A DNA stretch of 38,720 nucleotides from a virus. Both the position numbers and the translations under genes were made by a program. The stretch is from IMG/VR virus record IMGVR_UViG_3300047325_000062, positions 1 through 38,720 of that record, one strand, 5' to 3'. How positions within the stretch are numbered: position 1 is the stretch's first letter; every line of letters starts with the position of its first letter. Of this stretch, positions 9,711 through 36,009 are shown piece after piece. The notes below the pieces were generated by a model. It had not been told where the DNA came from, ran no database searches, and saw only the letters and a program-made list of their open reading frames with translations.

Positions 9711-10301
9711 ATGATCAGCATCGTCGAAGTCTATCGCCGCTGGCCCGACCACGCGGCGTGCATCAAACACCTTGAAGCGGTGCGGTGGGGCGAAAGCCCC
9801 ACCTGCACTTATTGTGCGTCGGAGAAGGTGTCGAAACACCGCGAGGCGCACCGGGACAGGTGGCAGTGCCAGGCGTGCAAAAAGAGCTTTTCCGTTACGG
9901 TCGGCACGATTTTCCACAACACCCATATCGACCTGCAACGCTGGTTTTTGCTGGTCTCTCTGATGCTGAGTGCGAAAAAAGGTCTGTCCTCCATGCAGGC
10001 CGCGCGAGACATCGAAATTCGCCAGCCCACGGTCTGGTCGATGATGCACCGCATTCGGAAAGCGATGACGGACGACGGCGCGCTGCTGACTGGACTGGTC
10101 GAGATGGATGAAACCTACGTCGGCGGTAAACCCAGGAAGGCCAACCGTCACTCTGATGACCCACCGGGCGGTCAAGGCGTTTCGACCAAACTGCCGAAGA
10201 GTGACGGTTGGCCTTCCTGGGTTTACCGCCAACGCGTTCGGCCTCGCGCTTCATCTTGCGGTTACGCCCCAAAGTGTATAACTCCGGTAACGACGGACTA
10301 A
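9711..10301 (+). CDS. IS1595/ISXO2-type transposase N-terminal fragment (zinc ribbon + HTH), with the DDE domain truncated
   Basis: The sequence reads RWPDHAACIKHLEAVRWGESPTCTYCAS...WQCQACKKSFSVTVGTIFHNTHIDLQRWFLLVSLML...LTGLVEMDETYVGGKPRKANRH. This matches the Zn_Tnp_IS1595 N-terminus and the first motif (VE.DETY.GGK) of the ISXO2-like DDE domain. The ORF then runs into the second arm of an inverted repeat and stops. TAATG overlap with terL. Confidence 0.75.
   Translation: MISIVEVYRRWPDHAACIKHLEAVRWGESPTCTYCASEKVSKHREAHRDRWQCQACKKSFSVTVGTIFHNTHIDLQRWFLLVSLMLSAKKGLSSMQAARDIEIRQPTVWSMMHRIRKAMTDDGALLTGLVEMDETYVGGKPRKANRHSDDPPGGQGVSTKLPKSDGWPSWVYRQRVRPRASSCGYAPKCITPVTTD
10122..10230. repeat. 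Perfect 33-bp inverted repeat (10122-10154 / 10198-10230) with a 43-nt spacer
   Basis: GGCGGTAAACCCAGGAAGGCCAACCGTCACTCT and its exact reverse complement. Both strands therefore encode GGKPRKANRHS. Confidence 0.95.
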
Positions 10302-12325
10302 TGCTGATCGACCTCACCGAAACGGACGCACTCTGGCGCGACATCGAGACCCAGCGGCTTCGTCGCGATTTGCTTCGGTGCCTGAAGGACGATCCGATTC
10401 GCGCGCATGCAATCGTCTTTAGTGATGCTCACCAGTTCCCGGATCCGCCTTTCCACGCACAGATGCTGCGGAATTTCCACTCCGACAATCCGCGTGAGGT
10501 AATAGAAGCCTTTCGAGGCGGCGCGAAATCCACCCGCGCTGAAGAAGCCATTGCAATACGCATGGCGGCAGGACTTTTCAAATATGGTCTTCTATTATGC
10601 AATACTTACAGCAAGGCGGTTCAAAGACTTTCGTCTATCCGCTCTATTATTGACAACAACCCCGTCATCAACCGTCTGTTCGGCGATCTGCACGGCGACG
10701 TGTGGAACGAAAGCCGCATCCGGCTGACGAACGGCGTCACACTGGCCGCGCATGGCGCGCGAATGAGCATGCGCGGACTGAAGGAAGGCGACAGCCGGCC
10801 CGACTTCTGCCTGATCGACGATCTTGAGGACGAAGAATGGATCAGCACGCCGGAAGCGATCGAGGCGAACAAGCTCTGGCTTTTCCGCGAGTTGGTTCCG
10901 GCTCTCGCGTCCTTTCGCACGCCTATCCGGATGATCGGGACCCCTCTTGCTGACAACTCTCTGTTGCGGCAACTGGCTCACTCAGACGAGTGGCACGCGG
11001 CGCGCTTTCCGGTGCGGTATCTGGACGCGGAAGGTCAGTTGACTTCTGCGTGGCCGGAAAACGAGCGTTTTACGTTGGAAGCGATTGCCGACATCGAACG
11101 GCGCTATACAGAGCTGGGGGCGCATACTGTCTTCATGCAAGAGTACATGTGCGAAGCGACCTCGCCCGTAGACAAGGTTTTCACTTCGGCGATGCTCCGG
11201 TGCGAGCCGCGCATTCGCACCTGGCAGGCGGTCTACGCGATGATCGACCCGGCCCGAACCACCCGCTCCACCAGCGCCCAGACTGGTCACGCGGTTTGGT
11301 CGTGGGCGCCCGGCGGCCGGCTGGACGTGTGGGAATGCGGCGGCGATTTCCTGCAACCCGACGCCATCGTCAATTTGCTATTCCGCCTCCACGAAACCTA
11401 CCGCCCGGTCGAGATCGGCGTCGAACAGGACGGGCTCGAAGAGTGGATGATGCAGCCGATCCGCCACGAGCAAGCCAAGCGAGGCGTCATCCCGGTCCGC
11501 CCGGTGCGAGCGCCGCGAGGCAAGATTGACTTCATCAAAGGACTGCAACCCTTCCTGGCTGCAGGAACCGCGGTTTTCTGCCTCGAACCCGGCGAAACCG
11601 AAGGCAAATTCCGCAACGCATGGTCGCAATTCCTCTCCTTCCCGCGTGGCGTGATCGACGCACCCAACGCACTGGCTTACGCTACCAGCTTACGGCCCGG
11701 CATCCCGGTCTATGCCGACTTCAGCTTCGAATGCGTGGAGATCGACCCGCAGCCGATGCCCGGTCGGCCGCATGTGGCTTGCTGGAATGCAGACGGCAGC
11801 AGGGTGACTCTGTTGCTTTGCCAGGAATACGCGGGCGTGCAACGGATCATGGCGGAATGGATCGATGAGGGACAACCCGCCGATGTGGTCCCGGACCTTG
11901 CGCGAGCTGCGGCTTTGGTGGCGGCCGGGCCCCTCATCCACTGCCTGGGGCCTCAGCACTTCGAACGGTACACCAATGTCGGGCTGCACCAGGCACTGCT
12001 TCGGGCGCGATGCGAGCCACGGCCTGGGGCTGATACGCTTAAGGGCCGGGTGGAAGTGCGGGCTATGCTCAAGCGCAGGTCGCGAGGCCTGCCGGGGTTG
12101 ACCGTGTCGCAAACCTGTCGATTTGCCCTCAACGCATTTTCGGCCGGCTTTGCGTTCCCAGTACAATATAACAACGTGGCCAAGGAGCCCGGCCCTGGGC
12201 TATATCGGACCCTGATCGAAGGGCTAGAGAACTTCGTGGGGTCTGCGGTGCTGCCCGATCGCGACGAAGAGGGGTTGTTCCGCGAAACGGCCGATGGGCG
12301 GCGGTATCGGAGTGCAATGCGATGA
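10301..12325 (+). CDS. terL: Terminase large subunit (674 aa from ATG 10301)
   Basis: P-loop-like FRGGAKST. Walker-B-like PDFCLIDDLEDEE. A C-terminal RNaseH-like nuclease begins at YAMIDPARTT. It sits immediately upstream of the portal gene. The track ORF starts at 10208, but that extension is the repeat arm. Confidence 0.85.
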   Translation: MLIDLTETDALWRDIETQRLRRDLLRCLKDDPIRAHAIVFSDAHQFPDPPFHAQMLRNFHSDNPREVIEAFRGGAKSTRAEEAIAIRMAAGLFKYGLLLCNTYSKAVQRLSSIRSIIDNNPVINRLFGDLHGDVWNESRIRLTNGVTLAAHGARMSMRGLKEGDSRPDFCLIDDLEDEEWISTPEAIEANKLWLFRELVPALASFRTPIRMIGTPLADNSLLRQLAHSDEWHAARFPVRYLDAEGQLTSAWPENERFTLEAIADIERRYTELGAHTVFMQEYMCEATSPVDKVFTSAMLRCEPRIRTWQAVYAMIDPARTTRSTSAQTGHAVWSWAPGGRLDVWECGGDFLQPDAIVNLLFRLHETYRPVEIGVEQDGLEEWMMQPIRHEQAKRGVIPVRPVRAPRGKIDFIKGLQPFLAAGTAVFCLEPGETEGKFRNAWSQFLSFPRGVIDAPNALAYATSLRPGIPVYADFSFECVEIDPQPMPGRPHVACWNADGSRVTLLLCQEYAGVQRIMAEWIDEGQPADVVPDLARAAALVAAGPLIHCLGPQHFERYTNVGLHQALLRARCEPRPGADTLKGRVEVRAMLKRRSRGLPGLTVSQTCRFALNAFSAGFAFPVQYNNVAKEPGPGLYRTLIEGLENFVGSAVLPDRDEEGLFRETADGRRYRSAMR

Positions 12326-14617: not shown

Positions 14618-15297
14618 AAGACGGTCAAACCGGTGACATGATGGACATTCCGCCGCGGCGCGAGCCTTTGCGACTAGCGGCCTTCATGATGCGGCTTTTC
14701 CTCGTCTTGTACGTGGTCGGCATAATCACCGCGATTTTAGTCATGGTGATTTGCTGGGCTTTTCGGCAGCCCGCCAGAGCCGCCACCACGCCGAATTACT
14801 TCTACGAGTACACCGCCGTCGCGTTTACCGAAAACTCGGCCAACGCGGTGGCCACAGTCATGCCGCAGCGATCGGTGCCCTACACACTTCTATCCCTGTG
14901 CTCCGAGGACGGATACCAGTCTGCCTGGGCGAACGCTTTTCCGTTCCTGGCTGCAGGCATGACGGGACAGGTCGCAGGGGTCTGCACGCCGATTCAGACG
15001 ACATACGGCACCGCGAACGCAATCATGGTCATCAGTCTTGTCGGCCCGAACCGGCCGCTCTGGCAGATGGTGATCCCGTGGGCGACGCAAACCCTCTGCC
15101 GCGCGAACATCGACAACGTAACCGACCTGCAGGCATTCCTCGGCACATTTCTGATGGGATCGTTCAACAACTTGATCCCGATGCCGGTCACACTGGCCGG
15201 CAGCAGCATGTCCACTCAAGCGCAGTATCAGGCAACAGACGTGGCTGGCGGCACCGATAACGTGACGGTGGCCTGTCCTCCTGGCGGACCTACCTAG
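14614..15297 (+). CDS. Membrane-anchored hypothetical protein (227 aa)
   Basis: ATGA overlap with the portal stop. One strong N-terminal TM segment (LRLAAFMMRLFLVLYVVGIITAILVMVICWAF) is followed by a Cys-containing extracytoplasmic domain. Confidence 0.6.
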   Translation: MKDGQTGDMMDIPPRREPLRLAAFMMRLFLVLYVVGIITAILVMVICWAFRQPARAATTPNYFYEYTAVAFTENSANAVATVMPQRSVPYTLLSLCSEDGYQSAWANAFPFLAAGMTGQVAGVCTPIQTTYGTANAIMVISLVGPNRPLWQMVIPWATQTLCRANIDNVTDLQAFLGTFLMGSFNNLIPMPVTLAGSSMSTQAQYQATDVAGGTDNVTVACPPGGPT

Positions 15298-16625
15298 TCT
15301 GCTTTGTAGTCCATGCCGACCGCATATCCGTGCGCTTGAAGCTTCGGCAGCTGGATCTGCAAGCGCCGCCCGATATCGCCGCGCCACATCGGCGAGTTGG
15401 GCAAGCTCACGCTTTCGAGACACTGGTAAGCATGCCGCCGGGCTTCCTCGACCGTTTTCCCTAACCCGCTGGCGACCAGCACATAGGTCCCAGCAGTCAC
15501 CGGACACGGCACATCGTCCATCACCATCCCGTCAATCGACTGCGGAGCGGTGCCTTGTGCCATTTCGCAGAAATGCAGGTTGCTCATCCTGCCCGGCTTC
15601 ACCCCATAAACCGGGATCTCGGCCACGTCCGAAAGTGGAAACTTATTGTACGGATAATCGGGGATGCTCATCACCACCCCAGCCGCTACCGAATTCCACA
15701 CGCACTGTCCAATCGGCGCGCCAGCTGCAAGCGCCAGCATCCAGTCCGCGGGGCAGCCTTCATGCGTCGCCTGTTGAATGTTGAACGTGGGCCAGCCAGG
15801 CCGCATCGTCCATTCGAGGGGCCACGGATTGCCTTCGTCATCAATGATGCAATTGACATCAACGTATCCGACATGCCCCGTTTTCACGATGTCGGCTTCA
15901 AATGGTTTCAAGACCTTATCGGCAAGCTTTGATTTGCCGGCGTAGCGAAGGACGGTACCTTGTTCTCCCGTTTGTGGGCCCCTCTCACCGTCCATCAGCT
16001 TCTTAAACTCGAAATTCTCGCACCATCCACCATCGAACCCGTTAGGCCCGATCCAGCCGCCGACCGCCATTTCAACGCCGGAAACCTTTTCCTGCAGAAT
16101 GAACGGTGATTTGAGCTTCCCCAGCTTTTTCCATCGCTGAAGCATATAGACGAGGTCTTCGGGTGACTTAGCGACGTAGGACAGCGCCTTGTCTGCATCT
16201 CCCGACGGCTTTGAGACGAACGGCCGATCCTCTTTCTTCACGTAGGCGATGGCTTTGTCATAGTCGCTGAAGCAGCGGCTTGCGGGAACGGCGATGCCTT
16301 TTTTTCGGAATTGGGCCATTCCAACGTCGCGATCTAGCTCCCATTCCGAGCTTTCGGGGGTTGCACCGAACACGTAGGCGGAGCTGCCCGTGGTGCGGAT
16401 CACATCGCGGACTTCAGACAGGTAGGCGGTATTGTCGGTCAAGAAGATCAGATCGGCCCAGCGCACCCATTCGCGCCAGTTCGCAACCCTGCGAATAAGC
16501 CCGCGGCCGATCAGAGCAAGGCGAGGCTTGTCCGGAATGTAGAGCCGAACATCGTGGCCGGCGCGCTGCGCGCGCATGCACCAGTCCAGACCGTTACCGC
16601 CGGCATCAAGGACAAGTGCCCGCAT
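15294..16625 (-). CDS. PurD-like ATP-grasp enzyme (phosphoribosylamine-glycine ligase family fold, 443 aa)
   Basis: Colinear with E. coli PurD, recalled from memory. N-terminus MRALVLDAGGNG vs MKVLVIGNGGRE. FVSKPSGDADK vs IVIKADGLAAGK. GPQTGEQGT vs GPNTGGMGA. GNPWPLEWTMRPGWP vs GNPKVIEFNCRFGDPE. TAGTYVLVASGLGKTVEEARRHAY vs TNGGRVLCVTALGHTVAEAQKRAY. Confidence 0.8.
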   Translation of the reverse strand: MRALVLDAGGNGLDWCMRAQRAGHDVRLYIPDKPRLALIGRGLIRRVANWREWVRWADLIFLTDNTAYLSEVRDVIRTTGSSAYVFGATPESSEWELDRDVGMAQFRKKGIAVPASRCFSDYDKAIAYVKKEDRPFVSKPSGDADKALSYVAKSPEDLVYMLQRWKKLGKLKSPFILQEKVSGVEMAVGGWIGPNGFDGGWCENFEFKKLMDGERGPQTGEQGTVLRYAGKSKLADKVLKPFEADIVKTGHVGYVDVNCIIDDEGNPWPLEWTMRPGWPTFNIQQATHEGCPADWMLALAAGAPIGQCVWNSVAAGVVMSIPDYPYNKFPLSDVAEIPVYGVKPGRMSNLHFCEMAQGTAPQSIDGMVMDDVPCPVTAGTYVLVASGLGKTVEEARRHAYQCLESVSLPNSPMWRGDIGRRLQIQLPKLQAHGYAVGMDYKAD

Positions 16626-26967: not shown

Positions 26968-27443
26968 TACCTGTTCCCGCCCGAAAAATCCGCCGCCGGG
27001 AGCGATTCCCCGGCGGCGCAGGTGACTAGGGAGGAAACGGCCCGTGACGTGGGCAAAGCGATCGCCGCAGACGCGGTGATTCCGGGATGGGCGCAATCAG
27101 CCAACAGGAAATAGCCGACGCGAGGCTCGCATGCGATCTGCAGATGCGGCGCCACATCATTCAGCAGAAGCCGCAAACGCCACACGACGGTAAAAAGAAG
27201 ATTTCTGTAAGATTTTGTGCCGGGCTGAGAAAAAGAACCAACCGCTCGGATGAGGTCGCTGTAAGCCTTCACCTGGCCGACGTCGGCCAATGCTGCAAGC
27301 AGACGGGCCTGCTGTGCATGCATGCGATAGCGACCGCGCGGTGTGGTGAGGATGTGCGTCTGCAGGTCGATCGTGACACCGCCAGGCAGGTCAACGACGA
27401 AACCATGCATATACGGACAGGAGCTGCAGCATTCCAAACTCAT
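26967..27443 (-). CDS. OmpR/PhoB-type winged-helix DNA-binding protein with no receiver domain (158 aa)
   Basis: ...IDLQTHILTTPRGRYRMHAQQARLLAALADVGQVKAYSDLIRAV...YRNLLFTVVWRLRLLL...IACEPRVGYFL matches the trans_reg_C pattern. A Cys-rich N-terminus (CCSSCPYMH) precedes it. Confidence 0.6.
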   Translation of the reverse strand: MSLECCSSCPYMHGFVVDLPGGVTIDLQTHILTTPRGRYRMHAQQARLLAALADVGQVKAYSDLIRAVGSFSQPGTKSYRNLLFTVVWRLRLLLNDVAPHLQIACEPRVGYFLLADCAHPGITASAAIALPTSRAVSSLVTCAAGESLPAADFSGGNR

Positions 27444-27694
27444 TCCGAGGACTCCGTTACCTCGTCTGTCTTTGGCCGCGGAAATATGTCAGGTCGAAGC
27501 TGATGCGGATCGATACCGCTCAACCGGCTGATTTCCGCCACGTGGAGGGCCGGAGGACGGCGCCATGCTGATACCGCTTGCTTAGTGACCCCGAGGGCTC
27601 GCGCTAGACGCGTACCGCCACCCACGAGGCTTATCGCCCGCTGCAACGACTCGGTCTGACGGGATGCGTCATTATTGCGCTCGGCGTCTTCCAT
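27440..27694 (-). CDS. Cro/YdaS-like HTH regulator (84 aa from ATG 27694)
   Basis: AISLVGGGTRLARALGVTKQAVSAWRRPPALHVAEISRLSGIDPHQLRPDIF fits the YdaS/Cro-type HTH. It is the first gene of the leftward operon. ATGA overlap with the next gene. Confidence 0.7.
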   Translation of the reverse strand: MEDAERNNDASRQTESLQRAISLVGGGTRLARALGVTKQAVSAWRRPPALHVAEISRLSGIDPHQLRPDIFPRPKTDEVTESSE

Positions 27695-27724
27695 GCGCCC
27701 GAGCGAACCACCAAAAAAAATCGC

Positions 27725-27773
27725 AGTCAAGGCTAATTTGACCGTTGCGCTATGGGTCAACCTATGCTTGACT
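27725..27773. promoter_or_regulatory. Divergent early control region with nested inverted repeats and face-to-face promoter-like hexamers
   Basis: AGTCAAG (27725-31) pairs with CTTGACT (27767-73). TTGACC (27738-43) pairs with GGTCAA (27755-60). The + strand reads TTGACC-N18-CTATGC and the - strand reads TTGACC-N17-ATTAGC. Confidence 0.45.
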
Positions 27774-27835
27774 TGTTTCGACGCCAAGCCGCTCCTGCAA
27801 TCAAGCAGGCGGCTTGGCGGGCTAGGAGAGGTTAG

Positions 27836-28198
27836 ATGAAAACGATAGAAATTAAAAATCGCTGGAATGGCACGACGTTGTTCTCCTGCGAAATAACGCC
27901 GGACGTCGAGGACATGCCATACGGGCAACAGCTTGGTTTTGCCGTGAGAAAAGCACTGGCCTCAAACATCCGTCTGTCGGGCGCCGATCTGCGGGGCGCC
28001 GATTTGTCGGGCGCCGATTTGTCGCGCCGCGATCTGTCGCGCTGCGATCTGTCGCGCTGCGATCTGTCGGGCGCCGATCTGCGGAACTCCATGCTGTTGG
28101 GCGCCATTCTGCGAGGCACCATTCTGTTGGGCGCCATTCTGTCGGGCGCCTATTTGTCGGGCTCCATTCTGTTGGGCGCCGACGAGACGGTTGCGTAA
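27836..28198 (+). CDS. Pentapeptide-repeat protein, short paralogue (120 aa)
   Basis: A(D/N)LxG/R-type pentads: SGADLRGADLSGADLSRRDLSRCDLSRCDLSGADLRNSMLLGAILRGTILLGAIL. It shares its N-terminal 45 aa with the next gene. GGAGAGG RBS. Confidence 0.8.
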   Translation: MKTIEIKNRWNGTTLFSCEITPDVEDMPYGQQLGFAVRKALASNIRLSGADLRGADLSGADLSRRDLSRCDLSRCDLSGADLRNSMLLGAILRGTILLGAILSGAYLSGSILLGADETVA

Positions 28199-28266: not shown

Positions 28267-29058
28267 GTGAAAACGATGGAAATTAAAAATCGCTGGAATG
28301 GCACGACGTTGTTCACATGCGAAATAACGCTGGACGTCGAGAATATGTTATACGGGCAACAGCTTGGTTTTGCCGTGAGAAAAGCACTGGCCTCAAACAT
28401 CCGTCTGTCGGACGCTGATCTGTCGGGCGCCGATCTGCAAGGCGCCTATTTGTCGCGCTGCGATCTGTCGGACGCCGATTTGTCGCGCTGTGATCTGTCG
28501 CGCTGCGATCTGTCGGGCGCCGATCTGCGAGGCGCCGATCTGCGAGGCGCCGATCTGCGGGGCGCCGATCTGTCGCGCTGCAAGCTATCGGGCGCCTATT
28601 TGTCGCGCTGCGATCTGTCGGACGCCGATCTGTCGCGCTGCAAGCTATCGGGCGCCGATCTGTCGCGCGCCGATCTGTCGCGCGCCAATTTGTCAACAGT
28701 CAAGCAGGACTTCCTTGCCGAAGTCCTACGCCTTCCTAACGAGCTTGAGGCGCTTAAAGACGCGCTGCTCGCGGGCCGAGTAGACGGTTCGATATATAGC
28801 GGAAGTTGTGCATGCCTGGCCGGTACCTTGGCCAAAGCGCACGGCATCAGCAATTATAACGGCCGTGACATTAACCTTGGCAACAATATTGTTTTTCATG
28901 CAAACGCCGAGAGTCCGCGGGAGATGTTCTTCACCGCCATACAGCCGGGTGACACACCAGAGAAAAATGGCGCGGCGCGGATCGCGCTGCAATGGACCGA
29001 AGAGGCTATTGCTATCCGGGACATGATCCGCGTTACCGCCCCCAGGGAGGCAGTATGA
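28267..29058 (+). CDS. Pentapeptide-repeat protein, long paralogue with a Cys-containing C-terminal domain (263 aa; GTG 28267 or ATG 28276)
   Basis: About 20 consecutive pentads (ADLSGADLQGAYLSRCDLSDADLSRCDLSRCDLSGADLRGADLRGADLRGADLSRCKLSG...). The C-terminal domain contains GRVDGSIYSGSCACLAGTLAKAHG. Confidence 0.85.
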   Translation: MKTMEIKNRWNGTTLFTCEITLDVENMLYGQQLGFAVRKALASNIRLSDADLSGADLQGAYLSRCDLSDADLSRCDLSRCDLSGADLRGADLRGADLRGADLSRCKLSGAYLSRCDLSDADLSRCKLSGADLSRADLSRANLSTVKQDFLAEVLRLPNELEALKDALLAGRVDGSIYSGSCACLAGTLAKAHGISNYNGRDINLGNNIVFHANAESPREMFFTAIQPGDTPEKNGAARIALQWTEEAIAIRDMIRVTAPREAV

Positions 29059-29945: not shown

Positions 29946-30355
29946 TGGGCGTCATTTCGGAAAAGCTGATCAAAGCGTGCGAAGCGCAATATTCGCTCGT
30001 GCAAAATTCCCATCTAGTAGTATCGGCGCCTGCGGCAGTGGCGTTGCTCGGCATGGACGTTTGCGCTTTAGCCAAAGAGGTCGAGGCGGTGGAATGCCGC
30101 CAAATGAGCATCACGGCTCAGTTGCTTTCAAGCCGGCAGAAGGCTCTCGACACCGACGCCGCGCTGCGTCGGATTGCTGCTCAGCTTTCTGTGGCGCTTC
30201 AGCACGATGTGCCGGACTCTGTTGTGCGGTCCGCTGCTGCACATACAACCGCTGAAATACAGGCTTTGTTGGACCGAGACTCCCAGCCTCATAAGTTCAG
30301 CCGGCCGCGCGGCGACTTCCTGCGTGTGTTTGAGGGCGGGGCAGTCAAAAGATGA
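29945..30355 (+). CDS. Hypothetical protein (136 aa)
   Basis: In-frame ATG 29945 within track ORF 29807..30355. This start was chosen because it removes overlap with the two small coupled ORFs. Confidence 0.5.
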   Translation: MGVISEKLIKACEAQYSLVQNSHLVVSAPAAVALLGMDVCALAKEVEAVECRQMSITAQLLSSRQKALDTDAALRRIAAQLSVALQHDVPDSVVRSAAAHTTAEIQALLDRDSQPHKFSRPRGDFLRVFEGGAVKR

Positions 30356-30561
30356 CACAGCTTCGAGTTTTGCAGCGCAACATGACAGAGGCGTATGCAA
30401 CCGCCAGAATTCTGGCCATCTTAGCCCGCCGGATTCGCGCTCAAGCCGCGTCCGGAGACACTGTGGGACTTCAAGCCGATCTGAACGAAATGGCCCGGGA
30501 GGCCGCGGCCCTGTCTGAGATGATAAACTCGTGCGCCAAGATACGGGTCACAAGCTTATGA
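30352..30561 (+). CDS. Hypothetical protein (69 aa)
   Basis: ATGA overlap with the previous gene. Helical composition. Confidence 0.55.
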   Translation: MTQLRVLQRNMTEAYATARILAILARRIRAQAASGDTVGLQADLNEMAREAAALSEMINSCAKIRVTSL

Positions 30562-30731
30562 GCAAGGACGAAGCGCGAGTGCTGCTCGGCTATCTCTCTG
30601 AAATCATTTCCGATCTGCGCGATCTCGCCCAGGACGCTCCATTACATGTTGCAACGAACAGGACGCAGCATATTGCTGCGTTGCAAGAGGCAAGCCGCGC
30701 GCTGGCTGAAACCTTTGGAGTAAGTTCATGA
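30558..30731 (+). CDS. Hypothetical protein (57 aa)
   Basis: ATGA overlaps at both ends. In-frame ATG 30558 inside track ORF 30531..30731. Confidence 0.5.
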   Translation: MSKDEARVLLGYLSEIISDLRDLAQDAPLHVATNRTQHIAALQEASRALAETFGVSS

Positions 30732-31627
30732 ACGCAATTTCGAAAAGTAAGCTCAGGGCCGTTGCACCGAAGGCTGCCGCACCGGCCAAGCCTAAGGTTC
30801 TGATTTTTGGCGCTGCGGGTGTCGGAAAGACATGGACTGCGCTGGACTTTGCGGCCTGCTATTACATCGACACGGAAGGCGGCGCAAACCTCAAACGCTA
30901 CATCGAAAAGCTGGAGCGCAGCGGCGGTGTTTATCTCGGGCCTGACCAGGGCGCTTTGTCTTTCGACACGGTGCTGGAGCAGGTGCAGCTACTTGCCACG
31001 CAAAAGCACCCCTACCGTACCCTAGTCATAGATTCGGTTTCCAAGTTGTTTGGCAGCGCCGTCGCCCAGGAGGCGGAGCGTTTGGCGGACGCGGGAAAAA
31101 AGAATGAATTCGGCGCGGACAAAAAACCAGCGGTGGGCGCTATGCGTCGGCTTGTTTCCTGGCTCACGCGCCTGGATATGACGGTTCTGCTGATCGCGCA
31201 CCAGAAGGAGGAATGGGGCCTGAACGCGAAAGGCGAACGGGAAGCGATCGGCCAGACGTTTGATGCATGGGATCGTCTGGAATACGAGCTGCATCTGTGC
31301 CTGCAGGTGATTCAGCAGGGCAACAATCGCTTCGCCAAGGTTCGTAAGTCCCGGCTGGAAAATTTCACCAAGGGTGAATCTATGCCATGGTCTTACGAGG
31401 AATTTGCGACGCGCTACGGCAAGGAAACCATCGAAGAAGATGTGAAGCCGATTGAGTTAGCGAGCGATGAACAGCTTGCCGAAGTCCGTAAGCTCCTGGA
31501 AGTCGTCAAAATACCAGACGATCAGGAAGCCAAGTGGTTCACCGCTGCCGGCGTCACGTCATGGCCCGAGATGGACGCTGAAAAGGTGGACAAGATTATC
31601 AGCTGGCTGAAAGGGAAACTGCCATGA
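30728..31627 (+). CDS. Sak4-like AAA_24 (RecA-fold) ATPase, a recombination/annealing accessory protein (299 aa)
   Basis: Walker A VLIFGAAGVGKTWTA. Walker B YRTLVIDSVSKL. LLIAHQKEEW. Typical pairing with a downstream DUF669-type SSB. Confidence 0.8.
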   Translation: MNAISKSKLRAVAPKAAAPAKPKVLIFGAAGVGKTWTALDFAACYYIDTEGGANLKRYIEKLERSGGVYLGPDQGALSFDTVLEQVQLLATQKHPYRTLVIDSVSKLFGSAVAQEAERLADAGKKNEFGADKKPAVGAMRRLVSWLTRLDMTVLLIAHQKEEWGLNAKGEREAIGQTFDAWDRLEYELHLCLQVIQQGNNRFAKVRKSRLENFTKGESMPWSYEEFATRYGKETIEEDVKPIELASDEQLAEVRKLLEVVKIPDDQEAKWFTAAGVTSWPEMDAEKVDKIISWLKGKLP

Positions 31628-32109
31628 GGTTTACACCCAAAACGGAAGCCGAAATTGAGGCGGAAGCCGCTGCACGCGGCCCCTTCAAGCCAGGCATCTA
31701 CGATTTCGACGTGATCAACGCATTGGATGAAGTTTCCAAAAGTGGCAATGACATGATCACGCTTGAAATCCGGGTGTTTGACGGCAACGGGGAAACCAAA
31801 AAGATCACGGATTGGCTGGTCGATAAGATCGCCTACAAGGTACGTCATGCCGCCTACTCCGTCGGTCTTGGCCGCGAGTATGAGGCTGGCAAGCTGGAGG
31901 CCAGCGATTTCCTAAATCGCAGTGGCAAGGTAAAGCTGAAGATCAAGCAGGAAAATCCGTATCCGCCAAGGAATGTGGTTTATGATTATGTAGTCGAAGA
32001 CAAACCGGCGAACGTCTCATCTTCCCGGCCCCCAGCCCGCAAATCCGTCCCCGCAGGCGGCGGCGATTCGTTTGACGATGATATTCCGTTCGCTGCGGAG
32101 TGGCGGTAA
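31624..32109 (+). CDS. DUF669-type single-stranded DNA-binding protein carrying a DDDIPF motif (161 aa)
   Basis: N-terminus ...FKPGIYDFDVINALDEVSKSGNDMITLEIRVFD... (DUF669-like). An unstructured G/P/S linker follows, then DSFDDDIPF followed by AAEWR-stop. Confidence 0.7.
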   Translation: MRFTPKTEAEIEAEAAARGPFKPGIYDFDVINALDEVSKSGNDMITLEIRVFDGNGETKKITDWLVDKIAYKVRHAAYSVGLGREYEAGKLEASDFLNRSGKVKLKIKQENPYPPRNVVYDYVVEDKPANVSSSRPPARKSVPAGGGDSFDDDIPFAAEWR

Positions 32110-32212
32110 CCCGGACGCATGACTCTCATAGCCGACGATCACGCCGCACCGCCGCTGTCTGGCGTTTGGCGATCCGCATTTTCGCGTGTGCCAGGCTTGA
32201 GGAGAAACCCAA

Positions 32213-33285
32213 TGAAAGTGAAACTGCGAGACGGCAGCACCATAAATTCGCTGCCCGAAACCGCCTCGCAGGCGGCGTTGGTCGTCGCAATCGACTCAGG
32301 CGCCGACCTGGAGGGCTACGCCCACGCCCTCCCGGCGCTTACCTCCATCGGGGGTTCCGCCTACCTGGAGGGCTACGCCCATGCCCTCCCGGCGCTTGCC
32401 TCCATCGGGGGTTCCGCCTACCTGCGGGGCTACGCCCATGCCCTCCCGGCGCTTACCTCCATCGGGGGTTCCGCCTACCTGGAGGGCTACGCCCATGCCC
32501 TCCCGGCGCTTACCTCCATCGGGGGGCCCGCCGACCTGGAGGGCTACGCCCACGCCCTCCCGGCGCTTACCTCCATCGGGGGTTCCGCCAACCTGGAGCG
32601 CTACGCCCACGCCCTCCCGGCGCTTACCTCCATCGGGGGTTCCGCCTACCTGGAGGGCTACGCCCACGCCCTCCCGGCGCTTACCTCCATCGGGCGTTCC
32701 GCCTACCTGCTGGGCTACGCCCATGCCCTTCCGGCGCTTACCTCCATCGGGGGTTCCGCCTACCTGCTGGGCTACGCCCATGCCCTTCCGGCGCTTACCT
32801 CCATCGGGGATTACGCCTACCTGGAGGGCTGCGCCCACGCCCTCCCGGCGCTTACCTCCATCGGGCGTTCCGCCTACCTGCGGGGCTACGCCCATGCCCT
32901 TCCGGCGCTTACCTCCATCGGGGATTACGCCTACCTGGAGGGCTACGCCCATGCCCTCCCGGCGCTTACCTCCATCGGGGGTTTCGCCGACCTGCGGGGC
33001 TACGCCCATGCCCTCCCGGCGCTTACCTCCATCGGGGGGCCCGCCGACCTGCGGGGCTACGCCCACGCCGATTGGCCTTGGTTGATAAATGGCGGGGCCG
33101 AGAGCCGTGGATATTATTTCACTGGCATGCTGGTGGATGGCGAGTGGCGTATCCGCGCGGGCTGTCGCGATTTCACAATCGAGCAGTCCCTGACTCACTG
33201 GGGATCTGGTGGCCGAAGCAACAGGCCAGATTGCCTGGCACTCGTGAATAAGATCAAGGCCATTGCCGAGGAACGTGGCAAGTGA
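32213..33285 (+). CDS. Solenoid/LRR-like protein built from 13 tandem 19-aa repeats plus a unique C-terminal domain (357 aa from ATG 32213)
   Basis: GAGGAGAAACCCA-ATG RBS. The unit is GYAHALPALTSIGxxAxLx, repeated 13 times. The C-terminus is DWPWLINGGAESRGYYFTGMLVDGEWRIRAGCRDFTIEQSLTHWG... The track ORF start at 32119 lacks an RBS and contains the 31-bp repeat. Confidence 0.75.
32313..33053 (+). repeat. Tandem repeat, 57 bp x 13, in-frame and near-identical
   Basis: GGCTACGCCCA(C/T)GCCCT(C/T)CCGGCGCTTACCTCCATCGGG... recurs at 32313, 32370 and every 57 bp up to 33054. Confidence 0.95.
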
Positions 33286-33386
33286 CGGGTACCAAGCGCT
33301 AGGAAAGCCGATGCCCTAGTGGAAAGTCTCATGCCTATCCGCCTTACACCCGTGGTGGTCATGGGTGAGAACCGGACAGGCATGGA

Positions 33387-33599
33387 ATGATCAACAATTC
33401 TGACCTTGACCGAATCGGCCTTCTGCTAGACCTGCGCGCTCGGGTGCTTTATTTCGCAAACCAAGTCGATAGTTTGTCTGAATTGAAAAGCATTGTTCAG
33501 GTGCGAACATACGCACCGTTTCTGGCCGATCAGATGCGCGCACTGGTTAGCGAAGCGAAATATGTGGAAGGGTGCAAGCGCCATGATGCAACGTACTGA
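33387..33599 (+). CDS. Hypothetical protein (70 aa)
   Basis: Complete ORF in a lower-GC segment. Its stop overlaps the next start by 17 nt. Confidence 0.5.
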   Translation: MINNSDLDRIGLLLDLRARVLYFANQVDSLSELKSIVQVRTYAPFLADQMRALVSEAKYVEGCKRHDATY

Positions 33600-33780
33600 C
33601 CAAGAAGCTTTTGCACTAACGCCACCAATATCCAGCATAGCGGATCACGTTGGCGGAAGCTGCGAAGACGGATACCTTGTGCAGTTTATTCTAACTGACG
33701 GAGCAGAATATTACGCGTGGATGGCATGGTTGCACGACCAAAGAATAAAAATGTTGGATGGGTGCAAGCGTGACAAGTAA
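33583..33780 (+). CDS. Hypothetical protein (65 aa), paralogous at both termini to its neighbours
   Basis: In-frame ATG 33583 (MMQRTDQEAFAL...). It ends ...LDGCKRDK, while the previous gene ends ...VEGCKRHDATY. Confidence 0.5.
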   Translation: MMQRTDQEAFALTPPISSIADHVGGSCEDGYLVQFILTDGAEYYAWMAWLHDQRIKMLDGCKRDK

Positions 33781-33967
33781 ACGCACTGACCAAGAAGCTT
33801 TTGCACTGTTGAGCGCAATAGGACTGACCACACACGATGCGGCAATCGTTGCTGGTGATGGCGAATGGATCGTGCTGCTACTATTGCCGATCAAACCCCC
33901 AAAATTGTCAGTGTTTGATGGATGGCCTATCAAATACGATTACGCGCATAAAGGTGCATGGCTTTGA
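33758..33967 (+). CDS. Hypothetical protein (69 aa; may start at GTG 33770)
   Basis: Its N-terminus ..SKRTDQEAFAL.. is paralogous to the previous gene's N-terminus. Confidence 0.45.
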   Translation: MGASVTSKRTDQEAFALLSAIGLTTHDAAIVAGDGEWIVLLLLPIKPPKLSVFDGWPIKYDYAHKGAWL

Positions 33968-33973
33968 AACCCG

Positions 33974-34068
33974 TTCGCTGCCCGAAACCGCCTCGCAGGC
34001 GGCGTTGGTCGTCGCAATCGACTCAGGCGCCTACCTGGAGGGCTACGCCCACGCCCTCCCGGCGCTTA
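33974..34068 (+). pseudogene. 95-bp remnant of the 5' end of the repeat-protein gene (copy of 32247-32341, 1 mismatch)
   Basis: Direct alignment. It encodes SLPETASQAALVVAIDSGAYLEGYAHALPAL and then diverges. There is no start codon or RBS of its own. Confidence 0.8.
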
Positions 34069-34211
34069 TTCAGGCGGAACGTTTGATTGAGCGGCTTTGG
34101 TGCATTTGGAGGCGCGTCCTTCGGCGGTCGCCCGGTCTTCAGGTTGCCCGAAGCGCGGAACATGCGCAGCCGGTGCGGCTATCGGCTTGCGACCTTCACC
34201 CGAGGACTGAA

Positions 34212-34946
34212 ATGGGAGGCACAATGGGCAACGAGCACGACGAAATCGTTTGCTGGTCACGCATGCAGGCTGAGGCCGGTCAGTCGCTTCAGGATATCGT
34301 CGTCCGCAAAGAGATCGAACGCAGGACCGGGGACGGTCTTTTCTGCTGGGGAGTGGGAAATGCGCCAGGGCAGACGGCTGCCAAAATTGCGGCCAGTGGG
34401 ATGAAGCCCGGCGTGGTGTTCTCCGTGATGAAGGGCCGTCCGAGGGAGGTAGATGCCAGGCCGGCAGCCGTCGTCGTATGGCGGGGCTATATAGGAGCTG
34501 ATGGCATAGAGAGGCCCCTGCCGGATCACTGCCTCGTAACGAGCCGGTCCGCCGCGACGCACCTTGGACCGGGCCGGCACTACGCCCTCATGTGTCGTTC
34601 GGAACAGGAACTCGTGCTTGGCGATTACGGCCCATTTGATCCGGAGGATTACCGCAATGTCGGTGGCACAGGCGCGCGTGTGGGAGCATCACAGGCAACC
34701 GCCATGCTTCGTCGGGTAAGTTCAAACGGTAAGGGATCATATCGTATCAACGTCAGGGCGAGGCTCGACCTCGACATGTGGGTAAAGCTCACCGATCCAG
34801 TGCTCCTTAGCCGCACCCGCCTCGAAGCTCTTCGCGATCTGCCGAGCGATATGGCTGGCGAGGCGTGGCGGTGTTTCGTCGCCTCGCTGAAAGATGGGCT
34901 GGCTCGCCGCCTATTCGAAACAGCCTATCAACCGGCGCTCCTTTAG
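34212..34946 (+). CDS. Hypothetical protein (244 aa)
   Basis: In-frame ATG 34212, or 34224, inside track ORF 33837..34946. Upstream of that point the frame reads through the gene remnant. No motif recognised. Confidence 0.55.
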   Translation: MGGTMGNEHDEIVCWSRMQAEAGQSLQDIVVRKEIERRTGDGLFCWGVGNAPGQTAAKIAASGMKPGVVFSVMKGRPREVDARPAAVVVWRGYIGADGIERPLPDHCLVTSRSAATHLGPGRHYALMCRSEQELVLGDYGPFDPEDYRNVGGTGARVGASQATAMLRRVSSNGKGSYRINVRARLDLDMWVKLTDPVLLSRTRLEALRDLPSDMAGEAWRCFVASLKDGLARRLFETAYQPALL

Positions 34947-34987
34947 AGGATGCCGACCGTCTAATCGACCGACTGCTTGTATCGATA

Positions 34988-35422
34988 TCAACACGGGGGT
35001 GCTGCCGACTTATGCCCGATGGCCAACCTCATGGCTGACAGCTTCGACGCCAAGTCGCTTCGACGTGCATTGCGGCATGCTGGCCTGAGCCGCAGCGCCG
35101 TTGATGCTGCATGGCCGGATTGGTGGACCGACGAAGCTGAAACGTCCCCCTCGGCGCGAGCCGATCTTCGCTTTGCCCTCGCACATAATCTTGGGCTTTC
35201 GCCGAAGGCTCTCATCGGCGGCTCGGGCTTGGCCGGCTTTCGCTTGGGTGGCCCGCGCTTGACTTCGCCAGACTTGATCAAGCCTAGCCGAACCGCGCGC
35301 TGCCTGATGCTGGCCCTGGTGCGGCCCATGGTCAGGGCGATCTTGCCTCTGTCCATGCCGGCCGCGAACAGGCGTTCCAGTTCTGCTGTCTCTTCAGGCG
35401 TCCAGTGTGGGCACCTGGTCAT
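34988..35422 (-). CDS. GcrA-N-terminal-domain-like HTH protein (the first about 70 aa are convincing; the C-terminal extent is uncertain)
   Basis: WTPEETAELERLFAAGMDRGKIALTMGRTRASIRQRAVRLGL aligns with the phage GcrA N-terminus W..LRRLWTEGHTTSVIALQMKCSKSSVIGAAHRMGL. The remainder is Arg-rich and overlaps a + strand ORF. Confidence 0.5.
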   Translation of the reverse strand: MTRCPHWTPEETAELERLFAAGMDRGKIALTMGRTRASIRQRAVRLGLIKSGEVKRGPPKRKPAKPEPPMRAFGESPRLCARAKRRSARAEGDVSASSVHQSGHAASTALRLRPACRNARRSDLASKLSAMRLAIGHKSAAPPC

Positions 35423-35444
35423 TCCTCCTATAGCACCCGTCCTT

Positions 35445-35810
35445 TCAGCTCGTCGTGGGCACGCTCGATACGATCAGCCGCGCGATGGCCAAGCCCGCCG
35501 CGATCTCGGCCTGGTGCTGCGGACTGAGCGTGTTCGCCGGAAGCGCCGCATCGATCGCCTGGATATCGGCCAGCACGGCTGCCGCGTTGGAAGGCGTGGG
35601 CGCGGAGGCCAGGGCCGCCAGCGCCGCGTTCAACGTGCTCTCGGCTTTCTGGAATGCAGGCGTGTTTGTCGCGGGATACAAGGCAAGTGCCGCTTCGATG
35701 ACAGGCACCGAAGCTTGCAAACCGGCAATGTTCGACTCATAAGCGGCCGGGTTTTGACACGCGGCACACGCCAGTCCTGATGCCAGGGCGGCATTGCGAT
35801 ACAGGTTCAT
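35445..35810 (-). CDS. Ala-rich exported protein, possibly a lipoprotein (121 aa from ATG 35810)
   Basis: AAAGGATGAAGCC-ATG RBS. Signal-like N-terminus MNLYRNAALASGLACAAC. Confidence 0.5.
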   Translation of the reverse strand: MNLYRNAALASGLACAACQNPAAYESNIAGLQASVPVIEAALALYPATNTPAFQKAESTLNAALAALASAPTPSNAAAVLADIQAIDAALPANTLSPQHQAEIAAGLAIARLIVSSVPTTS

Positions 35811-35814
35811 GGCT

Positions 35815-36009
35815 TCATCCTTTCGGTTGCATGGAGGGGGAAGGCAGGTGGTAGAAACCGGCCGCCGCACCGGCCGCCACGAAGACGCCTATCCACCCTG
35901 CGGTCGTGGTGGGCAGCGTATCGCTCTTCGCAAGTTGTGTCAGAACCGGGATCAGTCCGCCCACGAAGGCCACGGCCGCAGTTTTCAGTGTCGGCAGGAA
36001 AGCGTTCAT
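35815..36009 (-). CDS. Two-TM small membrane protein, holin-like (64 aa from ATG 36009)
   Basis: GGAGAAAACAACG-ATG RBS. TM1 is TAAVAFVGGLIPVLTQL and TM2 is GWIGVFVAAGAAAGFY. Confidence 0.5.
   Translation of the reverse strand: MNAFLPTLKTAAVAFVGGLIPVLTQLAKSDTLPTTTAGWIGVFVAAGAAAGFYHLPSPSMQPKG

Follow-up and report, generated by a model that had tools for sequence, protein, structure and literature searches.

A phage early gene of tandem repeats belongs to a widespread family that joins one conserved C-terminal domain to exchangeable solenoids

What is a phage gene for when most of it consists of a single short unit repeated head to tail with little change? The question is raised by one gene in a 38,720-nucleotide stretch of viral DNA (IMG/VR virus record IMGVR_UViG_3300047325_000062, positions 1 to 38,720), the whole of which we call the window. 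The gene encodes a 357-residue protein composed of an N-terminal leader, a run of 19-residue units and a C-terminal domain (Table 1). A first interpretation made from the sequence alone (the original prediction) had described it as a solenoid scaffold diversified on one surface and attached to a unique C-terminal domain. We find that the gene belongs to a widespread, unannotated phage family, and that this family is defined by the C-terminal domain.

Seven of the first search matches shared the C-terminus of the window protein. A profile of this domain was searched exhaustively against 1.84 billion cluster representatives and matched 666 of them at E <= 1e-3 and 84 at E <= 1e-10; nearly all of the 666 are 90-250 residues long and carry the domain at their C-terminus. 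What had been regarded as a unique domain is thus the hallmark of a large family. An indexed search added 129 further matches to the domain, with a Pfam assignment on it in none (0 of 129). The shared motif set, GxDxRGYxF...WRxxAGCR...HWG...RPDC, lies at the C-terminus of small repeat proteins and is fitted by the window protein, in which all of the near-invariant residues (G295, D297, R299, Y301, F303, R313, A316-G317-C318-R319, A326, H329-W330 and C341) are present. The isolated domain had no match in Pfam, PHROGs or NCBIfam, and its profile gave 0 matches at E <= 1 among PDB sequences. When the domain was modelled alone (predicted local distance difference test, pLDDT, 94.4) and compared with the PDB by Foldseek, the best E value was 0.54 and template-modelling (TM) scores did not exceed 0.37. 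A literature search found no paper describing the family, and no exact match of the window protein is on record in public assemblies. Bacterial genomes seldom carry the family: among 185,579 species representatives, 7 loci were found, all of them in metagenome-assembled genomes and mostly in Alphaproteobacteria.

We then consider the part of the protein that precedes this domain. The ATG is at 32212, one base earlier than the originally assigned start at 32213, and the stop codon occupies 33283-33285. Tandem Repeats Finder (TRF) reported a single array at 32301-33069 with a period of 57, 13.5 copies, 92% matches and 0 indels. Read in the LPAL register, it comprises 13 full units of exactly 19 residues each, preceded by the degenerate unit VVAIDSGADLEGYAHA, and the reading frame is unbroken across all of them; TRF and translation place the 13-unit array previously set at 32313-33053 at 32329-33069, the same array in another register. 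The composition profile gave a GC content of 0.70-0.73 for the array versus 0.50-0.58 for its flanks, with a negative GC skew. An AlphaFold2 model of the full-length protein, based on a 106-sequence alignment, reached a mean pLDDT of 93.4 and a predicted TM score of 0.78. In this model the N-terminal 287 residues are predicted to coil into a beta-solenoid, built from 13 near-identical 19-residue units and a degenerate one, with two short strands in each (unit positions 5-7 and 10-14), and the last coil is predicted to run into the 71-residue C-terminal domain. The solenoid scaffold proposed at the outset is therefore matched by a confident model (pLDDT 93).

The origin of the 19-residue unit was sought in domain and structure databases. 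Hmmscan of the 357-residue protein against Pfam-A returned 0 families at E <= 0.01, so that the LRR_5 model was not reached, and no match to PF00805 appeared in the Pfam scan; the window units are not pentapeptide repeats. PHROGs gave only repeat-level matches to two function-unknown families (phrog_13106 and phrog_34596), and NCBIfam gave only spurious sub-threshold matches for the full protein and the C-terminal domain. A database-wide search, by contrast, reached distant relatives that include genuine BspA-type leucine-rich repeat (LRR) proteins (P0023, P0027, P0036 and P0037; E values 1.9e-9 to 9e-4), which score 154-264 bits on Pfam LRR_5 (PF13306), P0023 scoring 220 bits. The phmmer value of the window protein against P0023 was 1.9e-9. 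In BLASTP the same pair gave E = 1e-18, a score of a kind that repeats inflate between repeat proteins, and the consensus LPALTSIGGSAYLEGYAHA paired with LPAATSIGDYAFSGCNALASIS unit for unit, with one gap of three residues in each unit. Because of this in-register alignment, the 19-residue unit appears to be a BspA-type LRR shortened by three residues, in agreement with the resemblance noted in the original prediction.

The likeness has limits. The core motif LPA-TSIG--A of the BspA-type LRR (LRR_5, TpLRR class) is common to the window units, but BspA-type units are about 22-24 residues long and three residues are deleted from each unit of the window protein, which moreover is cytoplasmic, phage-encoded and equipped with a different C-terminal domain. 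Solved LRR structures gave no significant Foldseek match (TM about 0.2). Against the PDB, the full model had no match at E <= 1e-3, its weak top matches being LRR ectodomains and a beta-helical antifreeze protein with 19-residue repeats (TM about 0.2-0.26); against BFVD, it retrieved only the uncharacterised homologue A0A6J7XCT0 and weak solenoid matches. The structural comparison that had been suggested for the model thus yielded no confident match to any characterised family in either database. A natural, truncated LRR of 19 residues would be of interest to repeat-protein design.

Across the family, at least six unrelated types of solenoid repeat are joined to the C-terminal domain. They comprise the 19/20-residue LPA(L/G)xS(I/V)GG units of the window protein; 19-residue GCTALTEINAPxAExIxAS units, with 13 copies in locus L006 and 12 in L027; 20-residue NCPGLxALPxLPAAT units; 22-residue TGITALPEGLxVGGSLxL LRRs, with at least 13 copies in L033; Cys-rich CxNCxN repeats; hexapeptide-like GDAxVxG repeats; and genuine pentapeptide repeats (PF00805; P0152-P0157, L018, L021 and L036-L038). 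The reverse holds as well: the 19-residue unit type is also joined to DUF5758, PcfJ, DUF7930 and an unnamed N-terminal domain, all of them small. Several phages carry two or three paralogues close together, often with different solenoid types (L022, 2506-6204; L023, 196-1262; L018, 2004-6186; L021, 3810-4762). The two parts of the proteins also differ in charge: the C-terminal domain is mildly basic (median isoelectric point, pI, 8.1), whereas the N-terminal parts tend to be mildly acidic (median pI 5.1), with a pI below 5.5 in 120/206 and a basic pI in 23/206.

The only cultured phage found to carry an annotated homologue is Edwardsiella phage Edno5. Its Edno5_0047 (AYP69195.1, 'hypothetical protein') contains eight LRR-like units with the same GG-x-L-(D/Y)-L-(E/R)-G alternation as the window family, as well as a related C-terminal segment (FRIAAGC), and it is encoded in an early operon upstream of RecE/RecT. 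It differs from the window protein in its 22-residue unit, its overall identity of 39% and a divergent C-terminal domain that lacks the HWG and RPDC motifs.

Array length varies several-fold among otherwise similar proteins. The closest orthologue, P0040, is 97% identical to the window protein in the C-terminal domain and identical at 35/39 residues of the N-terminus, and it has 3 units versus 14; this pair is what the repeat-number comparison suggested in the original prediction yielded, P0040 being the one close relative of the window protein that it could draw on. A metagenome scan for close relatives found none above 65% identity. In the pentapeptide branch, L036 and L037 share 83/83 C-terminal residues and have about 26 versus about 7 pentapeptides; about 16 occur in L038, like these a JGI metagenome contig and 90% identical. 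In 208 database relatives the length of the N-terminal part has a median of 68 residues and a maximum of 189, which makes that of the window, with 287, the longest. Arrays of 10-16 units occur in other branches too (L006, L027, L033, L034, P0003 and EBPR podovirus 1). Since a 97%-identical orthologue has only 3 units and the N-terminal part in the window is the longest, the window array appears to have expanded recently by unequal recombination between units. Between the 585-bp contig of P0040 and the window, the match begins at the ATG and stops 11 nucleotides past the stop codon, with unrelated flanks; homology to L001 has these limits, in an unrelated context. The gene thus moves as a cassette.

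Next, we asked how the units of the window array differ from each other. Thirteen of the 57 nucleotide columns are variable, and 10 of these fall in columns 25-47 (codons 9-16). The alternatives are G/R/D at unit position 9, S/P/Y/F at 10, Y/D/N at 12 and E/R/L at 14, and a single unit departs from the rest at each of positions 5, 15 and 16. Synonymous changes account for three of the variable columns (CTC/CTT, CAT/CAC and GGT/GGG); the last lies inside the patch, where all changes had been held to be non-synonymous. Clustering of the variable columns was borderline (scan-permutation P = 0.054). Non-synonymous columns per non-synonymous site were enriched in the patch relative to the rest (Fisher P = 0.001), and a dN/dS-like ratio was 3.2 in the patch versus 0.22 outside, both from very small counts.

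A wider sample places this patch in perspective. We collected 65 distinct homologous units by regex, after a hidden Markov model of the 19-residue unit had recovered too few, and found high entropy at positions 3, 5, 6, 10, 12, 14, 17 and 19. Confinement of variation to one short patch thus holds within the window array but not across the family, where eight positions vary and variation is broader than the window patch; an even spread among homologues had been named beforehand as evidence against the confinement. That variation is so tightly confined in the window array is largely due to a few unit types having been amplified recently. In addition, D/Y(/N) at position 12 and E/R at position 14 reappear in Edno5, EBPR podovirus 1, P0003, L005 and L034, and the change from GAG to CGG requires two nucleotide changes, of which no intermediates were seen among the window units. 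Because the same choices recur in distant homologues and the GAG/CGG pair has no intermediates, the alternatives at positions 12 and 14 would seem to be old variants reshuffled by unequal recombination and not fresh point mutations. As to where they lie, the predicted second strand (DSSP) holds the variable positions 10, 12 and 14 with the invariant A11 and L13 between them, from which we infer that residues 10, 12 and 14 share one exposed face. The idea of one diversifying surface is retained, then, as regards the predicted face, while the variants look old and reshuffled and the statistics are weak.

If neither repeats nor domain resemble a protein of known activity, does gene context offer a guide? 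In the window, the repeat gene lies in a rightward early operon directly after the genes of a Sak4-like ATPase and a DUF669 single-strand DNA-binding protein (SSB), which agrees with its initial placement in an early-right operon beside recombination genes; a pentapeptide-repeat gene lies further upstream. Family genes recur beside four types of recombination module, namely Sak4 plus SSB, YqaJ/RecT, RecET and ERF. A census of 147 neighbouring open reading frames (ORFs) in 20 IMG/VR loci returned RecE/YqaJ-like exonuclease as the top family (9 loci), together with RecT; a YqaJ-like exonuclease or RecT was present within 4.5 kb in 9-10/20 loci, and the recombination genes were mostly 0.5-3.3 kb downstream on the same strand. 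In L003 and L004 the family gene is flanked by a cro/cI-like helix-turn-helix gene and by genes for a DUF3799 exonuclease and a Sak4-like ATPase. In Edno5 the order is an N-like antiterminator, a Ral-like anti-restriction gene, Edno5_0047, three small ORFs, RecE and RecT. EBPR podovirus 1 has an unannotated homologous repeat ORF upstream of RecT and an exonuclease, and in P0201 the C-terminal domain and an ERF annealase domain are parts of one protein.

On these grounds we put at about an even chance the reading that the family protein is an early-expressed accessory protein, a modular binder or inhibitor in host takeover or anti-defence that combines a conserved anchor with a fast-evolving solenoid. 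The conserved, mildly basic C-terminal domain would dock onto a conserved partner. Because the gene is recurrently linked with recombination modules, this partner may be tied to DNA-end processing, recombination or defence; candidates would be parts of the machinery for recombination or the processing of DNA ends, and host nucleases or defence proteins acting on phage DNA ends. The solenoid would serve as a rapidly changing, length-variable surface or spacer, and in the window protein the putatively exposed residues at unit positions 9, 10, 12 and 14 differ from coil to coil. The original prediction had stated that no characterised phage function was known for such a protein, and none was found in Pfam, PHROGs, NCBIfam, the PDB or the literature. 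Overall, the prediction is largely upheld: its LRR likeness, solenoid and operon have stood, whereas the C-terminal domain is not unique, variation across the family is broader and the within-array statistics are thin.

Several points weigh against a role as modular binder. Linkage to recombination genes may merely reflect a shared early-operon location, and both the binder role and the partner are drawn from sequence, predicted structure and gene context. The C-terminal domain has, in the searches above, no sequence or structural relative that would hint at an activity, and its invariant Cys and His could mean catalysis, not docking. Within the array, the evidence for diversifying selection is statistically thin, and the recurring D/Y and E/R alternatives fit structural alternation as well as they fit target binding. 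Finally, unrelated types of solenoid replace one another, which speaks against a specific surface for binding being conserved on the repeats.

The proteins to which the family can be compared are similar in position or in logic. Lambda Gam, P22 Abc2 and T7 gp5.9 are phage inhibitors or modulators of RecBCD. These small early proteins are encoded beside recombination genes, the same position as that of the family, and the analogy is one of position only: no similarity to Gam, Abc2, gp5.9, Ocr or ArdA was detected in Pfam, PHROG or NCBIfam or by Foldseek in the PDB and BFVD (PADLOC was not searched). Poxvirus ankyrin-repeat/PRANC (F-box-like) host-range proteins have a variable repeat domain and a conserved C-terminal domain of about 60-70 residues, occur as multiple paralogues and turn over rapidly. 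F-box-LRR and ankyrin-PRANC adaptors follow the same logic as the window family, a small constant domain with swappable repeats, with no homology implied; repeat type, domain and kingdom differ, and we know of no SCF ubiquitin machinery in bacteria. A bolder proposition, which we regard as somewhat unlikely, is that the family constitutes a widespread and hitherto unrecognised class of phage counter-defence adaptors, in which a structurally novel anchor of roughly 70 residues hijacks or blocks a conserved host DNA-end or immunity machine and a plug-in solenoid of any repeat type, its length shifting rapidly by gain and loss of units, sets specificity or reach. If true, bacterial viruses would have their own counterpart of the PRANC and F-box adaptors.

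Anti-defence and host-takeover proteins that still await discovery reside chiefly in the early regions of phages. The present analysis defines an abundant family of 666 clusters that is unannotated in Pfam, PHROGs and NCBIfam and has neither a solved nor a similar structure. One domain with at least six solenoid types, several-fold differences in length and a persistent linkage to recombination modules together would form the signature of an arms-race gene.

The main rival to a modular binder holds that the protein is a DNA-mimic rod like MfpA/Qnr, which would block RecBCD/AddAB, a restriction enzyme or gyrase, with the C-terminal domain aiding targeting and array length setting the length of the mimic. 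Pentapeptide-repeat proteins (PF00805), to which the MfpA/Qnr-type mimics belong, are beta-solenoid rods like the predicted window solenoid; some family members carry genuine pentapeptide repeats instead of LRR-like units, and across the repeat types only the generic property of a rod seems conserved. The gene moreover occupies a lambdoid gam-/ral-type position and adjoins a Ral-like gene in Edno5. The rival is favoured by these pentapeptide relatives and by the mild acidity of the N-terminal parts, and weakened by the near-neutral array of the window, whose solenoid has a net charge of -8 over 287 residues and a pI of 5.9, far from Ocr-/ArdA-type mimics. The window protein is not strongly acidic, its likeness to gyrase inhibitors or DNA mimics is an analogy only, and the 23 basic N-terminal parts point the same way. 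LRR-type solenoids are not among known DNA mimics, and Foldseek against the PDB and BFVD gave no significant structural match to MfpA or Qnr. We consider a DNA mimic unlikely.

Could the protein instead serve the recombination system of the phage itself as an accessory subunit, a mediator or regulator that binds SSB, annealase or exonuclease? Linkage with four different recombinase types and the union of the C-terminal domain with an ERF domain in P0201 would be expected of such a subunit. The companions are non-homologous recombinases, however, so that one conserved phage partner is impossible, and the gene acts as a cassette moving between unrelated contexts. About half of the IMG/VR loci have no recombinase within 4.5 kb, though many loci are truncated, and it would be unusual for a core cofactor to vary so extremely in length or to occur as multiple paralogues. 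Such a subunit is, in our judgement, quite unlikely.

A different doubt concerns the array itself, for the 13-14 copies might be an assembly artefact or an over-count of a real gene of about 3 units. The 3 units of P0040 fit this doubt, as do the fact that the N-terminal part in the window exceeds those of all 208 database relatives and the observation that 8/20 IMG/VR contigs begin inside family arrays. The longest exact repeat inside the window array, however, is 72 bp and all k-mers of at least 77 are unique, so that the unit order is determinable from ordinary reads, in principle with reads of 100-150 nucleotides; the reading frame is intact through every unit; and arrays of 10-16 units arise independently in the six other relatives named above. 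An artefact of this kind is improbable. Family arrays often break short-read assemblies, and repeat counts in databases are probably biased low, a warning that genes of this family are systematically broken or collapsed in short-read viromes. Contigs starting in a repeat array include L005, L009, L012, L013, L014, L016 and L020 from IMG/VR, as well as L029, L032-L035 and L039.

Highly improbable, last, is that the repeats act as DNA (as iterons, a replication origin or a recombination hotspot) or owe their diversity to a programmed process, for instance a diversity-generating retroelement: a tandem DNA repeat within a replication/recombination region, the strong anomaly in GC content and skew and variable codons that include first-position changes of the TAC/GAC/AAC type speak for it, but homologues keep the protein motif and solenoid pattern despite different DNA and repeat types, and the retroelement was rejected since the large ORFs scanned included no reverse transcriptase, a template repeat is absent (the only extra copy being a 95-nucleotide, 99%-identical fragment), and substitutions involve all four bases with no adenine bias.

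The features of the locus are collected in Table 1. Elsewhere the window, a phage genome very distant from those in culture, carries genes for a terminase (10208-12325), a portal or adaptor-like protein, a tail fibre and a primase-helicase, and a repressor gene on the minus strand (27440-27928). For the terminase, the best match in a cultured phage is only about 26% identical, and megablast of 30000-36000 against the phage collection gave no match. A promoter and terminator scan found no site flanking the repeat gene, with counts no higher than in shuffled sequence.

Table 1. Positions of the repeat gene, its parts and related features in the window
Feature	Position	Strand	Evidence and remarks
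Complete gene, 357 codons and stop	32212..33285	+	ORF list, translation; leader, LRR-like solenoid and conserved C-terminal domain
Shine-Dalgarno-like GAGGAG	32199..32204	+	7 nt 5' of ATG 32212; read from sequence
N-terminal leader MKVKLRDGSTINSLPETASQAAL and degenerate unit 0 VVAIDSGADLEGYAHA	32212..32328	+	Translation; 39 residues
13 head-to-tail 57-bp units, consensus LPALTSIGGSAYLEGYAHA	32329..33069	+	TRF, per-column analysis, composition profile; variable codons 9, 10, 12, 14
71-residue conserved C-terminal domain, four predicted strands and two helices	33070..33282	+	Alignments; domain model
Pentapeptide-repeat protein with non-repeat C-terminal domain, same operon	28267..29058	+	Pfam PF00805 7e-46
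Sak4-like AAA_24 ATPase, recombination module	30728..31627	+	Pfam PF13479 1.7e-19, phrog_124
DUF669-type single-strand DNA-binding protein	31624..32109	+	phrog_378 1.8e-5; Pfam DUF669 match weak
95-nt second copy of 32247-32341	33974..34068	+	94/95 identical; repeat finding, pairwise alignment

The 95-nucleotide second copy is sharply bounded, lacks a start codon of its own and begins right after the stop of a small ORF. Its one mismatch, GAC to TAC, falls at variable unit position 12. An ORF at 33837-34946 passes in frame through the copy into the downstream gene (ATG 34212). Since tandem paralogues exist in other phages, the copy is probably either a recombination scar or what is left of such a paralogue. 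If the two copies recombined, the entire array, the C-terminal domain and three small ORFs would be lost. These ORFs, of about 65-70 residues each, stand in tandem at 33387-33967 with a GC content of about 0.50 and no family matches, and a 53-nucleotide repeat, 83% identical, spans two of their junctions (33565-33617 and 33755-33807). Of the genes further downstream, 34212-34946 (244 residues) and 34977-35780 (267 residues) have no Pfam or NCBIfam match; for the latter, PHROGs gave only the function-unknown family phrog_18577, and that weakly (2.8e-5).

The pentapeptide-repeat protein upstream ends in a C-terminal domain of about 110 residues that contains SGSCACLAGT. Its possible relation to the CGTxHCxAGW domain of P0018 and P0019, which is there joined to 19-residue repeats, was rejected, the BLASTP comparison not being significant. 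Far from the repeat gene, a 442-residue ORF on the minus strand (15294-16625) has weak matches to Pfam families of the ATP-grasp/phosphoribosylglycinamide-synthetase type (GARS_A 5e-6 and GARS_C 8.5e-7, both under gathering scores) and is placed between the structural genes and the leftward genes.

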